Of a DNA stretch of 64,000 bases, positions 11,809 through 55,780 are shown one piece after another. The stretch comes from Sphyrna mokarran (taxonomy: Eukaryota). The stretch is from assembly GCA_024679065.1 (NCBI GenBank), contig JAGIQG010000012.1:54188001-54252000 (forward strand), in the 5' to 3' direction. The notes under the pieces were generated by a model. It did no database searches and had not been told where the DNA came from. It was given only the letters and a program-made list of their open reading frames with translations. The position numbers and the translations under genes were made by a program. Numbering within the stretch: the first letter of the stretch is position 1; each line of letters starts with the position of its first letter.

Positions 11809-12296
11809 TGACAATGATCTGGTGGTATGGTATGATAAGCAGAGCCTTACCGCATTTAAACTGATCTATGTCATCCAGCACTTCTTCCATAACAGGACAA
11901 AAATCTGTCTTTGTTCCAAAATTGCAGATTAACATTGTCCTTCCACTTATTTAAAAAAATGATAGCTATGTAAAAAAGCTTTCCCTCATTCCACCGTTGA
12001 TTCTCAAATAATATCGTCAGGACATTCAACACCATTTAAGATGATGGAATTTGAATTCAATACAAAATATCTGGAATTAAGAATCTACTGATGACCATGA
12101 AACCATTGTCAATTGTCAGAAAAACTCATCTGATTCACTAACGTCCTTTAGAGAAGGAAATCTGCCGTCCTACATGTGACACATGCAGACCAGACAAGGT
12201 AAAGGCCACTCTTAACTGCCCTCCAAGTTAACTAGGGATGGGCAATAAATGTAGGCCAGCTAGCAATGCCCATGGTCCCACAAATGAATAAAAAAA
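11809..12296 (+). mobile_element. Second tRNA-derived shark SINE family, interrupted by a 203-bp local duplication (11838-12040)
   Basis: Body ATGGAATTTGAATTCAATA...CTGGAATTAAGAATCTACTGATGACCATGAAACCATTGTC and tail GGGATGGGCAATAAATG...ATGAATAAAAAAA at 12041-12296. A degenerate A-box head (GACAATGATCTGGTGGTAT) lies at about 11810-11828 and is the weaker part of this call. Confidence 0.65.
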
Positions 12297-12808
12297 TGCT
12301 CAGGGCTTCAAAATTCAACTTGTTTTAAAAGTAATAAAATTACAACAAACAAATCATATTTGGGACAGGCAATTTCCATGTTGCCATCTCCTCGTTGGTA
12401 CATAAAAAACAGTACAGTAACAGGGCTGTAAGTAGATGGGGAGCAGTAGAAATGATTGTTTGCTCACATATTCTGGTTTCTGGGTGCTCCCTGACTGATG
12501 CAGTTGAGTCTCCGCCAGATGCAGGCTGGTCGAAATTCATAAATGCCAAGTCTAATCAAATCACAAAATTGTTATTTCTCAGAAGGAGGCGTTTTGGCCC
12601 ATGTGTCTGCTCCGGATCTCTGAATGGGCCACTTCCCTGATTCCAGTCTCCAGTCTTCTCCCCGTAACTCTATATATTCTTTGATTTCAGATTCCCTTAA
12701 TCCCTGTTCAGTGCTTCAGTTGAACCTGCTTCAACCGCACTTAGAGGCCGAACATTCCTGATCCTAATGACTCAATCCTTCGTTCAAAACTGGGTGGCAA
12801 TATTTGCA

Positions 12809-12890
12809 GTTGTGATGGTTGAGGAGTTAAAGTGTTGGACTTGAAATCCAATGGGATTTCCTTGTGAAGATTCCAACCCAGCTCGCAGCA
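12809..12890 (+). pseudogene. Degenerate tRNA-Ser(TGA)
   Basis: 82 nt, colinear with vertebrate tRNA-Ser-TGA; anticodon arm TTGGA-CTTGAAA-TCCAA intact; A box and B box mutated (AGATTCCAACCC). Confidence 0.8.
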
Positions 12891-12984
12891 AGTGTGATTG
12901 AAGTTATTTATTCTCTTTAATCAGTTCCCCAGGGTGATCAGTGACTGGAAAACTGATCAGAATTCCCATTGGTTTTTAATCCTT

Positions 12985-13058
12985 AGCCATGTGGCTAGTT
13001 GGCTGATACGCCTGTCTTAGTAAGCAGGAGATGGGGGGTTCGAATCCCAGCAGAGCCT
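12985..13058 (+). pseudogene. Degenerate tRNA-Thr(AGT)
   Basis: Colinear with vertebrate tRNA-Thr-AGT: CCTGTCTTAGTAAGCAGGAGAT...GGTTCGAATCCCAGCAGAGCCT; B box intact, anticodon loop with an extra base, acceptor stem mispaired. Confidence 0.78.
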
Positions 13059-13827
13059 TACCCTATTTAAACTGATTTGTGTTATTCAGCACTTTTTCCT
13101 TAACAGGACAAAAATCTGTCTTTGTTCCAAAACTGCAAATTAACATTGTCCTTCCACTTATTTAAAAAAATGACTAGCTATGTAAAAAAGCTAGTCATTT
13201 TTTCATTCCATCATTGATTCTCAAATAATATCATCAAGACATCTAACACCATTTAAGTCTCATCCCACATTATCACTAAGTATTTTACTTCCCCACAAAA
13301 CACAGACACAATAAGTTGAGTGACTGCTAATATTAACAATATTTAAAGGGATCCTAAGTGATTCTCAGGTTAAGCACTACAAAGTTATGGGAGAAATATT
13401 GCATATACATCTAAGTGAACTAGAATGTTGTCCAAACAGCCCATTGATTTTGGACGCTTAAACGACCTTGTAAGTCTTCAAAAAGGCAAGCTGGAAGGAT
13501 ATGTTCATTATGAAGCAGATGTGTACCCCCTGCTATCTTGGTGAAGTCATAAATATTGGAGGGTAGTGCCAACCCTTTAAAAACCCAATCTATGTAAAAA
13601 TAAGTTGTCTAACAAACCTGCCCGAAAACCATTCTGGATGATTGGCTTGCCCTGAGGCAGTCATGATCAACTGGTTTCAGCAAAATCAAACCTACCTGCG
13701 GCCCAACAAATAATCCTTAAAAAAATCGGCTTTTGATGCAGCGAATAACAAGTACATTTTTATAGTATACTTGCCTGCATGTAGAATTAGGACAAAAGCT
13801 GGCTGCTGCTGCTCACCTATTGTGCTA

Positions 13828-14138
13828 CATAGAATTCCTACAGTGCAGAAGGAGGCCATTCAGCCCATCGAGTCTGCACCAACCACAATCCCACCCAGGC
13901 CCCTATTTCCGTAACTCCACATATTTACCCTGCTAATCCCCTGATACTAGAATCAATTTAGCATGGCCAAATATCCTAACCTGTACATTTTTGGACAGAT
14001 GGAAGGAAACTGGAGCACCCAGAGGAAATCCATGCAGACATAAGGAGGAAGTGCAAACTCCTCGCAATGAACTGAGGCCAGAATTAAACCTGGGTCCCAG
14101 GTGCTGTGAGGCAGCAGTACTAACCTCTGTGCTGCCCC
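13828..14138 (-). mobile_element. HE1/V-SINE with CR1-like tail
   Basis: Plus strand reads CATAGAATTCCTACAGTGCAGAAGGAGGCCATTCAGCCC (reversed tail) through GTGAGGCAGCAGTACTAACC (reversed head). Confidence 0.85.
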
Positions 14139-53087: not shown

Positions 53088-53356
53088 CCACAAGATTCAT
53101 CTTGGAATTAATACAGGGGAATGCTGCGGAGGTGTTTAAAAGGGGTGTCCGACTGATTAGTGAGATTAAGTTTCCCTGGGGGGTGCATGTCAGAGGCAAG
53201 CCATCATGAACATTGCCGTGTATTATGTGGGGGGGAGAAGAATGTTGTTAAAGAGGCTGAATATATGATGAACTTTCCCGCCGTCAGGGCCAGCAGGATT
53301 CTTCCCAGTTTTCTAACCCGAATTGTCACTGAAAAAATATGGGTAAATTCCGCCCA

Positions 53357-54130
53357 TTGGTTCTGTATGCCAATAGCCTGCACTGCCAATTTTTCTGTGG
53401 CAACACTGCTTTCATTGTGAGCATGTTGGGCACTTGTGTATAGTTTGTGCACAGGATTGATTAGCAATGATGTCAACGGGTAGCTCTTGTTACCCAGTAG
53501 CCACTCTTTACTTTGCCAATGTGGCTCAAATACAGCTGGCACAGTGGACTGCCATAGAATTAAGCTGTCATGACAGTTCTAATTCTGGATACCAAGGATT
53601 GAACTGCATGATTCTGTACATATGGTCACACATTAGCTGGTGTTGAAGGAGTGGAATCTCTTTTGATGGTAGCATCAGGGGACGCCTACACCAGGGGACG
53701 CCTGCAATTCAATGAAGCCATATGACCATTTCAACTGTGCACACTGGCAAGAGAAAACGTAGTCAGCTCTTGATGATCAGAGCATTATTGACATTCTTTG
53801 TGCACTAATGGATGACGGGCTGAAGGTTGTTCATATTTCCAGCTCCAGCCTGGTTAAAAGTTTATTGTCACCCAAACCTTTGTAACCATTGCTACTCTGG
53901 TCCTTGAGTCCACAGGGGTGGTTGTAGCAGGCTGACAAGTTTCAGTGAAGATGTCCATACTGAAGCACAGATATCACATACCTTGTAGTTCACTGAGATT
54001 GAAGTAGGTGTATTGTTTTCTGAACACCTTGAATGTATATAGTCCCCAGCTCAGAGCCTCTCCTTCTTCTCTTCCTCTTTCCACTTCCAGCAAGTTGGTC
54101 TCAGTTCATTTTTCAAATCATGCTGAGTTC
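53357..54130 (-). mobile_element. Second Harbinger transposase remnant
   Basis: VFRKQYTYFNLSE, RFHSFN..LMCDH, SCHDSLIL and WLLGNKSYPLTSLLINPV...HNESSVATEKLAVQAIG on the minus strand; heavily disrupted. Confidence 0.75.
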
Positions 54131-54743
54131 CATGAGTGTACTAATCTTCCCATGTCTGAGAGCAACTGGAGAAGTCTAAAAGTGACAAAAATGCTCTGTG
54201 CATCTCATGCAGCTTGTATGGACAAGTATGAGGAGGACAGTAGTGTGAATGAGCAGGCTGACCTGTGCAGTTGACCCCCTTGGTACAGGAGGCTATTCAA
54301 GTGGGATGAGTTAAAAGGAATGTCATAGTAGCAGATCTCCTTATAGTTCTTGGCAATCTTAAACAACCACAGAAAGCACCTAAGACTTGTAAAATAGAAG
54401 CGACACCATGGAGAACAAACTACCTGTAAATGGTTGATGATCCCTTAGATTGTGTGGGGAAAGGTGAGCTTGGTGGGAGGGGGTCTTTCTATCCTTCCTC
54501 TGAGCAGAATATGAACCCCAGGAATTTGGTGAGTGAGGAAGTTTTAAGGGTTAATTTCTCTCAAGTTTAGTCTTTTTTAGAATCATAGAACCCTACAGTG
54601 CAGAAAGAGGCCTTTCAGCCCATCGAGTCTATACCAAACACATTTTAATGTAACATTTAGTTAAAAATAAGCTTATTTCAGACTTAAACATGGAAATGCC
54701 AGTTTTCTGAAGGCAGCTGTCACTAGTTAATAGCTGTGTGGGT

Positions 54744-54943
54744 TAATGTTTCCTCTGGGTGCTCCAGTTTCCTCCCACAGTTTAAAGATGTATGGGTTAG
54801 GTTGATTGGCCATGCTAAATTGACCCTACTGTCAGGGGATTAGCAGGGTAAATATGTAGGGTTACAGGAATGGAGCCTGTGTGGGATTGTGGTCAGTGCA
54901 GACTCGATGGGCTAAATGGCCTGCTACTATAGGGATTCTATGA
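54744..54943 (+). mobile_element. HE1/V-SINE, 5'-truncated
   Basis: TTTCCTCTGGGTGCTCCAGTTTCCTCCCACAG...GGCCATGCTAAATTG...GGGATTCTATGA. Confidence 0.85.
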
Positions 54944-55089
54944 TCACTGTTATTCAGAAAGTATAAACCCAGGAATTTATGAGTGCACTTGAGAACACAG
55001 AGGCTGAAACCAGCAGTTTTATGAGTAAGGGAGATCAGTAATAAGGGGAACAGTAAATTAGTTGAGAAAAGTAAAATTAATTAACACAA

Positions 55090-55780
55090 TCAAGATGGCA
55101 GAATGGGTGGTGTTTCATGGCTGCAGAATATGGGAACTCCTGGATGCCATTGCAATCCATGGCATCCATATCTGCAGTAAGTGTTCGTGGACTTAGGAAG
55201 CTTCAGCTCAGAGTTGATGAACTGGAGGCTGGGAGGAAGACACTTTGTTATAGCAGGCAGTCAAACATCTCCAGGTGGCTTCTTTTGATTTGCTCAGCGC
55301 TCGTGGACAGGAAGGTGTGACTGTGTAATATGCATGTAAGAGGACTAAAAAGGTGGCAGTGGAAGAGCCTCACTCTCTTTGCAATTCAACAACAAGTTCA
55401 AGGTTCTTGCAGCTTGTATGGACAAGTATGAGGAGGACAGTAGTGTGAATGAGCAGGCTGACTTGTGCGGTTGGCCTCCTTGGTACGGGAAGCCATTCAA
55501 GTGGGGTGAGTTAGAATGAATGTTATGGTAGCAGGTCACTGTATAGTCAGGGGGATAGATTCTGTTCCCCTCAGCAGCGAATGAGAATCCAAAAGGTTGT
55601 GATGCCTGCCCAGTGCCAAGGTTTGGTTTATGTGCTCAGAGCTCTAAAGGAATGTACAGTGGGAAGGTTCCAGTTGGCATAGCCCATGTTGGTACCAAAG
55701 ACAGAAGTAAGGCTAGAAAGAAGTTAAAGAGAATGATGAACTAACAAGTAAAGCAGAACCTGAAATTACATCTGTATTAC
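55090..55780 (+). mobile_element. CR1 ORF1 remnant (zinc-finger/coiled-coil plus SGNH esterase-like)
   Basis: HICSKC..LRKLQLRVDELEA, LQFNNKFKVL, VMVAGHCIVRGID (GDSIVRG motif), CLPSAKV and AHVGTKD. Confidence 0.7.

Follow-up and report, generated by a model that had tools for sequence, protein, structure and literature searches.

Three short local duplications in a Sphyrna mokarran genome fit the repair-mediated duplications described in other vertebrates

Proximal repair-mediated duplications (RDs) were described across ten vertebrates by Pace, Sen, Batzer and Feschotte (2009, PMC2671141), with a mean length of 162 bp and a spacing peak at ~1,200 bp. As defined there, an RD is an insert of at least 50 bp that interrupts a transposable element and has its donor within 5 kb; junctions show microhomology, filler and deletion, and there is no poly-A. 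The authors describe the single-copy-donor and +/-30 bp filters of their pipeline as limits of the method, not as marks of the class, and give a density of 0.08-0.65 events per Mb of repeat. A hand count of the 69 rows in part 1 of their Table S1 places the donor upstream in 30 and downstream in 39. A literature search found no survey of repair-mediated duplications in sharks.

The window analysed here is a 64,000-nucleotide stretch of contig JAGIQG010000012.1, in which an earlier note had claimed three direct-repeat pairs. Self-BLAST of the window confirms all three at 88% identity and offsets of 1200-1453: pair 1 (11838-12040/13049-13257, 88.0%, offset 1211), pair 2 (41510-41682/42963-43137, 88.0%, offset 1453) and pair 3 (54205-54347/55405-55547, 88.1%, offset 1200), with E values from 1e-45 to 1e-69. 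Copies of 140-209 bp separated by gaps of 1008-1280 bp lie inside the limits of Pace et al. for proximal RDs (copies of at least 50 bp; gaps above 50 bp and below 5 kb). Mismatches number 19/203, 17/167 and 16/140 in pairs 1 to 3, and 46 of these 52 are transitions; mismatch-only divergence is 9.4-11.4%, with wide intervals (6-18%). The left copies interrupt older repeats (the same note had them interrupting or abutting such repeats), namely two SINEs and a Harbinger-like relic, the last on weaker grounds. Its description of the right copies as native holds too: the family sequence extends beyond donors 2 and 3, and donor 1 is spanned by a contig in three of four relatives. Nor were target-site duplications (TSDs), terminal inverted repeats or poly-A seen at the junctions of the three left copies, again as it had stated, and a retroposed or transduced insert was set aside for want of poly-A and TSD there. 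The features are listed in the table.

Features of the three copy pairs (window coordinates)
Feature	Position	Strand	Basis or remark
Host SINE 1, head remnant (first ~19 nt)	11810..11828	+	Agrees with 5' start of intact family copies
Filler, 9 nt	11829..11837	+	Begins with a repeat of the flank's final 5 nt
Acceptor copy 1	11838..12040	+	Inside head of tRNA-type SINE; self-BLAST, family alignments
Host SINE 1, resumption	12041..12275	+	After 2-nt microhomology (AG); 23 family matches in sample
B-box (13 nt) of tRNA-like relic	13036..13048	+	Adjoins donor 1 start
Donor 1, single-copy DNA	13049..13257	+	One contig spans it in relatives X2, X6 and X7
Host SINE 2, 5' part	41429..41512	+	39 collinear flank pairs
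Acceptor copy 2, core	41513..41679	+	Self-BLAST; it is the best non-self match of donor 2
Acceptor 2 tail	41680..41715	+	Probably donor continuation (43170-43194) past a ~30-nt gap
Host SINE 2, 3' part	41716..41950	+	Resumes with little or no host loss; 37 family matches, 16 listed
Donor 2	42966..43134	+	Within an old repeat (~42904-43680) of no assigned class
Host 3, left part: 5' region of Harbinger-like (DDE_Tnp_4) relic	53919..54204	-	Aligns to 4/4 family loci
Acceptor copy 3	54208..54347	+	Identity 0.89 to donor 3, against 0.56-0.76 to 11 other copies
Host 3, right part	54353..54488	-	Collinear with left part in 3/4 family loci
Donor 3	55408..55547	+	Within old repeat ~54980-55890; alignments to family loci run past either end of the donor

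In a search of the animal's own genome, with donors 1-3 and acceptor 3 as queries and only the best candidates scored, the neighbouring copy was the top non-self match for all three donors. The earlier note had named best matches lying elsewhere as grounds for giving up its reading; the neighbour is best throughout, though donors 2 and 3 are repeat family members. For these queries, donor and acceptor are thus mutual best matches in the sense of Pace et al. Pair 1 is single-copy, with no further copy in the genome; pair 2 lies within a repeat family whose next-best match reaches 83% among the best 40 of 984 candidates scored; and pair 3 has a single other full-length match, at 69%.

The pairs might also be read as family fragments that are neighbours by chance, as LTR-like terminal repeats or as an assembly artefact, and the family membership of two donors favours such a view. 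A chance pair of this kind does occur in the window: the inverted pair 1897-1977/2942-3022, tried as a fourth case, was rejected because it belongs to a family of 1,730 candidates in which both arms have better matches elsewhere. However, pair 1 is single-copy, and neighbours outscore all scored family copies. An LTR arrangement conflicts with a host that resumes directly after the left copy, inside the interval, and with right copies 2 and 3 that continue into their own families; an LTR or TRIM element was likewise dropped because the host is not continuous outside the pair and the repeats are not of one element. An assembly echo sits badly with copies that differ by 9-11%, mostly in transitions. 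Taken together, these explanations are barely credible.

At site 1, about 70 nt of the host SINE head are gone, including its B-box. The 13-nt motif beside donor 1 also occurs in the missing part of the host, as judged from family heads. It is the sole B-box-like match (at most one mismatch) in 8801-15100, with 56 matches in 1.664 Mb, and its position at the donor edge has a chance of ~1e-4 per boundary, calculated post hoc. ARAGORN found no tRNA.

Sequencing runs of relatives bear on the history of this site. In all four relatives (four studies), left-flank contigs fit the window to 11828, exactly where it departs from the SINE head, and are followed by 41-42 non-fitting letters; no contig bridges the site. 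The end of this fit at the start of copy 1 suggests that the copy is a lineage-specific gain. Read depth over 11867-11947 was 0, 0, 0.84 and 0 in the four, and is not counted as evidence because the site is unbridged by contigs; depth over the resumed SINE is very high in the relatives' reads. In the donor, five bases at 13194/13200 are missing in the relatives as in copy 1, with both gaps present in X2 and X6 and one in X7. Copy 1 therefore retains the older state.

At site 2, the junctions carry 5-6-nt microhomologies (ATCCC, AACCCC) and 3-4 extra nucleotides. Acceptor 2 shares 14 derived states with its donor; 18 other family copies share 1-8. Copy 2 probably reaches beyond its first-reported end, to judge from an alignment of 41685-41709 with 43170-43194 (18/25 identical) and from family copies that continue likewise. 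The 34 nt after copy 2, for which no 10-mer match was found nearby, had been considered as filler; that was dropped, as they probably continue donor 2. Two frames in the donor 2 repeat gave no Pfam match.

At site 3, host collinearity exceeds the shuffle maximum in one family locus (L203) and equals it in two, and up to ~20 nt of host are lost. The match of 53207-53578 to PF13359 (E 0.012) falls under the curated cut-off. The repeat that holds donor 3 is putatively a LINE ORF1, to judge from a motif.

Across the three sites, the neighbour is the source and the left copy the acceptor, hosts are interrupted and collinear on the two sides of the insert, and microhomology, filler and host deletion mark the junctions. 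The earlier proposal that the copies arose neither by transposition nor by tandem duplication, but by copy-paste from a nearby template into the left site, is upheld. The left copies are most probably repair-mediated duplications of the neighbour into an older mobile element. Such an event would begin with a germline chromosome break inside the element. The broken end would then invade DNA 1.2-1.5 kb away and copy a short tract (140-200 bp), which would rejoin the other broken end, finished by microhomology joining. We infer SDSA at a double-strand break from the junctions, as Pace et al. did, with three separate SDSA-like invasions as the probable history. At pair 1, homology may have guided template choice, the template being picked through the B-box that the host SINE had in common with the tRNA-like relic adjoining donor 1. 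The B-box is absent from the product, which argues against a simple one-step invasion that would have kept it; the host loss might reflect coupled end-trimming or a later deletion.

Several observations count against the RD reading. Donor 1 is single-copy, as the pipeline of Pace et al. requires, but the ~70-nt host loss beside it is greater than the 1-15 nt of their Table 1 and also oversteps the +/-30 bp filter. Conversely, the host halves of pairs 2 and 3 lie within 30 bp of each other, but their donors are repeats, a class that the pipeline excluded. The continuity of host 3 is also weak, with one of four loci clearly above shuffles.

Replication-fork template switching (FoSTeS/MMBIR) would yield an identical product: a nascent strand would jump ~1.2 kb ahead, copy and return, with no frank break. 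Copy 2 contains an internal jump of ~30 nt, microhomologies are short, and the local inverted duplications of Schloissnig et al. (2025, PMC12350158) are read in that paper as replicative. A host deletion with filler, however, would be slightly more in keeping with the processing of ends at a break, and no strand bias is seen, since both orientations and both sides occur in the genome sample. Fork switching is considered unlikely beside break repair. From sequence alone, SDSA, fork template switching and polymerase-theta joining would be indistinguishable.

A sample of 1.6 Mb outside the window places the three pairs in a wider context. A total of 59 best-hit pairs lay within 10 kb; removal of the three window pairs and of 14 others (more than two competing matches, offset of at least 5 kb, or more than 620 bp, several resembling LTR pairs or hairpin elements) left 42 with offsets below 5 kb, or 26 per Mb (19-35). 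Their median length is 154 and their median offset 1,290. The 42 compare with 9 at 10-60 kb, which marks the class as one found throughout this genome. The narrow distance range that had been proposed describes the three pairs (1200-1453) and not the sample, which has a broad peak at 0.5-2 kb, and the proposed fixed polarity is true of the three pairs only: 26 sampled pairs are direct and 16 inverted, a direct excess that is not significant (P 0.16), with acceptors on either side. Among six sampled pairs that interrupt an element, the acceptor is on the right in four and on the left in two, and in all five tested the neighbour was the top match. The automated test for interrupted elements recovers only one of the three window pairs, and consequently under-counts.

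The sample also bears on a tandem duplication of ~1.4 kb followed by loss of most of the first copy. Formally, this would give a direct left-hand partial copy, but the deletion would need, on all three occasions, to begin within ~0-70 nt of where the boundary originally lay, and tandem duplication is unable to make the 16 inverted pairs of like size and spacing. This history is highly improbable.

A single clustered event, such as an error-prone repair tract of ~45 kb, would account for shared polarity, spacing and age: the three identities are nearly equal, all pairs are direct and all donors lie to the right. By post hoc resampling, identities within 1 point have P 0.003, and offsets within 260 bp have P 0.03, or 0.009 with the all-direct condition. 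This is tighter than independent events predict, and counts against three separate events. However, 17 of the 42 sampled pairs fall at 82-90% identity and divergence intervals are wide. Three pairs in 64 kb are unremarkable because the sample density already accounts for the count (P 0.24; ~0.09 by hand computation using only the 26 pairs of at least 80% identity). Moreover, the following direct pair, 86% alike and 11.5 kb past the right end of the window, apparently has its acceptor on the right, the opposite polarity. A clustered event is very improbable beside separate repair-mediated duplications.

The copies lie in introns of a gene that we presume to be usherin-like from its domain order; PDB matches of its laminin-EGF exon are laminins. 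All three are likely to be neutral intron scars.

RD density in this genome may be several times that published for mammals. A stronger and rather doubtful proposition is that the genome holds ~70,000 recognisable RDs (26 per Mb, 19-35), at a density per Mb of repeat ~10x that of primates and ~30x that of zebrafish, and that short Pol III B-box homology shared by SINEs and tRNA relics can steer the choice of template. If true, no archive would be better than slow-evolving shark genomes for following this repair pathway across more than 100 million years, and the events, tens of thousands of them datable, would allow template choice, orientation, and any bias with forks or transcription to be tested. 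A higher density that survived a like-for-like pipeline would bear on the idea of unusually stable shark genomes. The point-mutation rate reported for the epaulette shark is low (7e-10 per generation, PMC10587355); if the density holds, such a rate could coexist with many break-repair scars, or merely preserve scars for longer.

Among known systems, the three copies fit the RDs of Pace et al. (PMC2671141). The process that had been offered as under-described and shark-specific is already on record for ten vertebrates, in which size and spacing peak are the same; what is extended here is a known mutational class, to a lineage outside that survey, whose Table 3 contains no cartilaginous fish. 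The window pairs and the sample match it in size, spacing and donors on either side, and the junctions agree with its Table 1. They differ in that two of three window donors are repeats, that host loss at pair 1 is larger, that homology at donor 1 is 13 nt rather than 2-9 nt, and that the density of events within elements looks higher (~5-7 per Mb of repeat; published, 0.08-0.65), by differing pipelines. 'Doublets' (Thomas et al. 2004, as discussed in PMC2671141) are also short, local, non-tandem duplications for which break repair was proposed, but were defined on near-identical pairs below 100 bp. The templated insertions termed MMB-TI (Osia et al. 2021, PMC8421209) likewise start from microhomology and copy nearby templates, but are from human cells and tumours. 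The 'Inverted Dup' and 'Ins with Dup and Del' variants of Sudmant et al. (2015, PMC4617611; below 1 kb, within 5 kb) and the local inverted duplications of Schloissnig et al. (PMC12350158; median 284 bp) have junction microhomology too; as reported there, they are human polymorphisms and mostly inverted, whereas the window pairs are old, fixed-looking and direct.

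All three direct-repeat pairs were recovered at the places claimed for them, both by self-BLAST of the window and by an independent repeat finder, and they are real local templated insertions of a known class. In each, the left copy is the acceptor, inside an older element, and the right copy is the donor. Mismatch-only divergence is 9.4% (pair 1), 10.2% (pair 2) and 11.4% (pair 3), and 46 of the 52 mismatches summed over the pairs are transitions, as expected of old copies and unlike assembly echoes. The pairs are intronic, between minus-strand exons that encode laminin-EGF (PF00053) and FN3 (PF00041) domains of a gene we take to be usherin (USH2A) from its domain order. 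The repeat finder also reported long palindromes or hairpins at 18765-19846, 40560-40792 and 63288-63466, the first two belonging to one repeat family.

Direct-repeat pairs in the window (self-BLAST)
Pair	Left copy (acceptor)	Right copy (donor)	Identity	Offset
1	11838-12040	13049-13257	88%	1211
2	41510-41682	42963-43137	88%	1453
3	54205-54347	55405-55547	88%	1200

The earlier note read these pairs as copy-paste from a nearby template, and this reading is upheld by the interruption of the hosts and by a test set beforehand, which compared the neighbour with other copies in the genome. In searches of the species' own genome (2.77 Gb), the neighbour was the best non-self match in three of three pairs; because these searches score the top candidates only, a better donor is improbable rather than impossible. 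Pair 1 has no further copy in this genome. Pair 2 has 984 candidate family members, of which 40 were scored, the next best being 83% identical; the two copies of the pair have in common 14 states that depart from the family majority, against 1-8 in each of 18 other copies. For pair 3, the sole other full-length match among the top candidates scored is 69% identical, and the two copies are 0.89 alike, against 0.56-0.76 for 11 other family copies.

The insertion sites carry junction marks. At site 1, intact SINE copies (23 hits) identify 11810-11828 as the start of a tRNA-type SINE head and 12041 onward as the SINE body. They are separated by a 9-nt filler, its first five bases a repeat of the adjoining flank, followed by the 203-nt copy. 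The head has lost about 70 nt, and 2-nt microhomology marks the right junction. Contigs of four relatives (four studies), some 7-8% diverged from the window over 12275-13700, match the left flank to 11828 and continue with 41-42 non-fitting letters. We infer that the site is empty in these relatives, whose contigs do not bridge it; donor 1 is spanned by a single contig in three of the four. Five bases at 13194/13200 are missing in the relatives and likewise in copy 1. Donor 1 contains a perfect hairpin with 15-bp arms (13165-13203), in the stretch where the relatives lack these five bases. Copy 1 does not have the hairpin, which likely arose when the donor underwent a quasi-palindrome template switch, later than the duplication. 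Over 11300-13700, differences with G/C in the relatives and A/T in the window are about twice as frequent as the reverse (66 against 32 transitions in one relative), which suggests AT-ward drift on the window's lineage.

Copy 2 interrupts another SINE, from which little if anything was lost (37 hits; 39 collinear flank pairs). ATCCC is common to host and donor at its left junction, and AACCCC to host and family at its right. The 36 nt after its core are probably donor continuation past a gap of about 30 nt, as 18 of 25 positions are identical and the family context agrees. Donor 2 lies inside an unclassified old repeat, copies of which extend past both donor ends. One locus of this family holds a second partial copy, inverted and about 420 bp away, possibly another local inverted duplication. 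Donor 3 is likewise within an old repeat, aligning over about 54980-55890, and left copy 3 matches that family over its own length only. At three of four loci of a Harbinger-like family the flanks of copy 3 align collinearly, with at most about 20 nt of host lost; for the right flank, just one of the four loci is clearly above shuffles. Two decayed Harbinger-like DDE_Tnp_4 transposase relics lie at 23644-24123 (+) and 53207-53578 (-).

These marks most likely reflect a break whose broken end invaded a nearby template, with presumably neutral consequences. In pair 1, homology may have steered template choice: directly before donor 1 stands a 13-nt B-box (13036-13048), with no other such match inside about 3 kb, and the same motif sits in the missing part of the host SINE head, which suggests homology guidance. 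The motif has 56 matches in 1.664 Mb, which puts its chance of falling at a given boundary at about 1e-4, an estimate made post hoc. Because the product lacks the B-box, this reading would also require either end-trimming during the event or a deletion afterwards. Two tRNA-like relics occur in single-copy DNA, at 12809-12890 (27 bits against Rfam tRNA, cut-off 29) and about 12985-13055; ARAGORN called neither as a tRNA.

Such pairs are abundant across the genome. Sixteen 100-kb blocks were sampled, two of them next to the window and the other 14 placed at round coordinates of further large contigs; the choice was non-random and took in no small chromosomes. Self-alignment of these blocks together with the window gave 3,677 non-tandem pairs of at least 60 bp within 60 kb. 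Within-sample best hits closer than 10 kb numbered 59; removing the three window pairs and 14 others left 42 in 1.6 Mb, or 26 per Mb (95% interval 19-35), although some, chiefly those below 80% identity, may be family pairs rather than duplicates. Their median length is 154 bp and their identity runs continuously from 69 to 99.5%. Spacing enrichment is borne out by a median offset of 1,290 and by the 42 pairs against nine at 10-60 kb. The narrowness claimed for it holds for the window, where offsets fall within 260 bp, and not for the broader sample, with offsets of 0.5-2 kb in 28 of the 42 pairs.

Three pairs in 64 kb are unexceptional at the sample rate (P 0.24; about 0.09 by hand computation with only the 26 pairs of at least 80% identity). 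The close agreement of the window offsets (P 0.03) and of the identities, all within one point (P 0.003), is post hoc and counts against full independence. Shared polarity does not survive as a rule: 26 sampled pairs are direct and 16 inverted, and of six element-interrupting cases, four have the acceptor on the right and two on the left. The polarity of the window pairs is chance. A direct pair 11.5 kb right of the window (L044, 1488-1869/2846-3220; 388 bp, 86%, offset 1358) looks as if its right copy is the acceptor. Three apparently very young pairs may still be polymorphic: L074 8128-8325/9357-9554 (99.5%), L072 2782-3044/3603-3865 (98.5%) and L139 1184-1484/2029-2328 (97.3%). One further window pair was dismissed as a family pair exposed by the genome search, and long direct pairs (L141-L142, L153, L085; offsets 4.6-5.9 kb, 496-781 bp) were excluded as resembling LTR pairs of old elements.

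Five sampled element-interrupting pairs had at most one rival match within the sample, and for all five the top genome-wide match was the neighbour; one donor is a repeat, leaving four. With repeats making up at least 38% of the sample (denominator 0.61-0.8 Mb), these four give 5.0-6.6 per Mb of repeat (interval 1.4-16.8). This is higher than the 0.62 of human (P about 0.001-0.002) and the 0.19 of zebrafish, but is a lead only, because few events are involved, the methods are not the same and old events stay visible under a slow clock. Interspersed duplications counted in Supplementary Table 17 of Schloissnig et al. 2025 may narrow the gap.

The proposal that the process is under-described is not supported: Pace et al. 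2009 (PMC2671141) defined the class across vertebrates as repair-mediated duplications (RDs). A survey in sharks was not found in the non-subscription literature searched. Pace et al. report 824 RDs in human TEs (mean 162 bp), with donors within 5 kb, a spacing peak at about 1,200 bp, and junctions with microhomology, filler or deletion and without poly-A. RDs are ascribed there to SDSA, and are also reported from chicken, zebrafish and other mammals. Table S1 of that paper has, in its first 69 rows, 30 donors upstream and 39 downstream. The inverted form is described elsewhere as common among human variants (Sudmant et al. 2015, PMC4617611; Schloissnig et al. 2025, PMC12350158). In size and spacing, the window pairs are as published for RDs.
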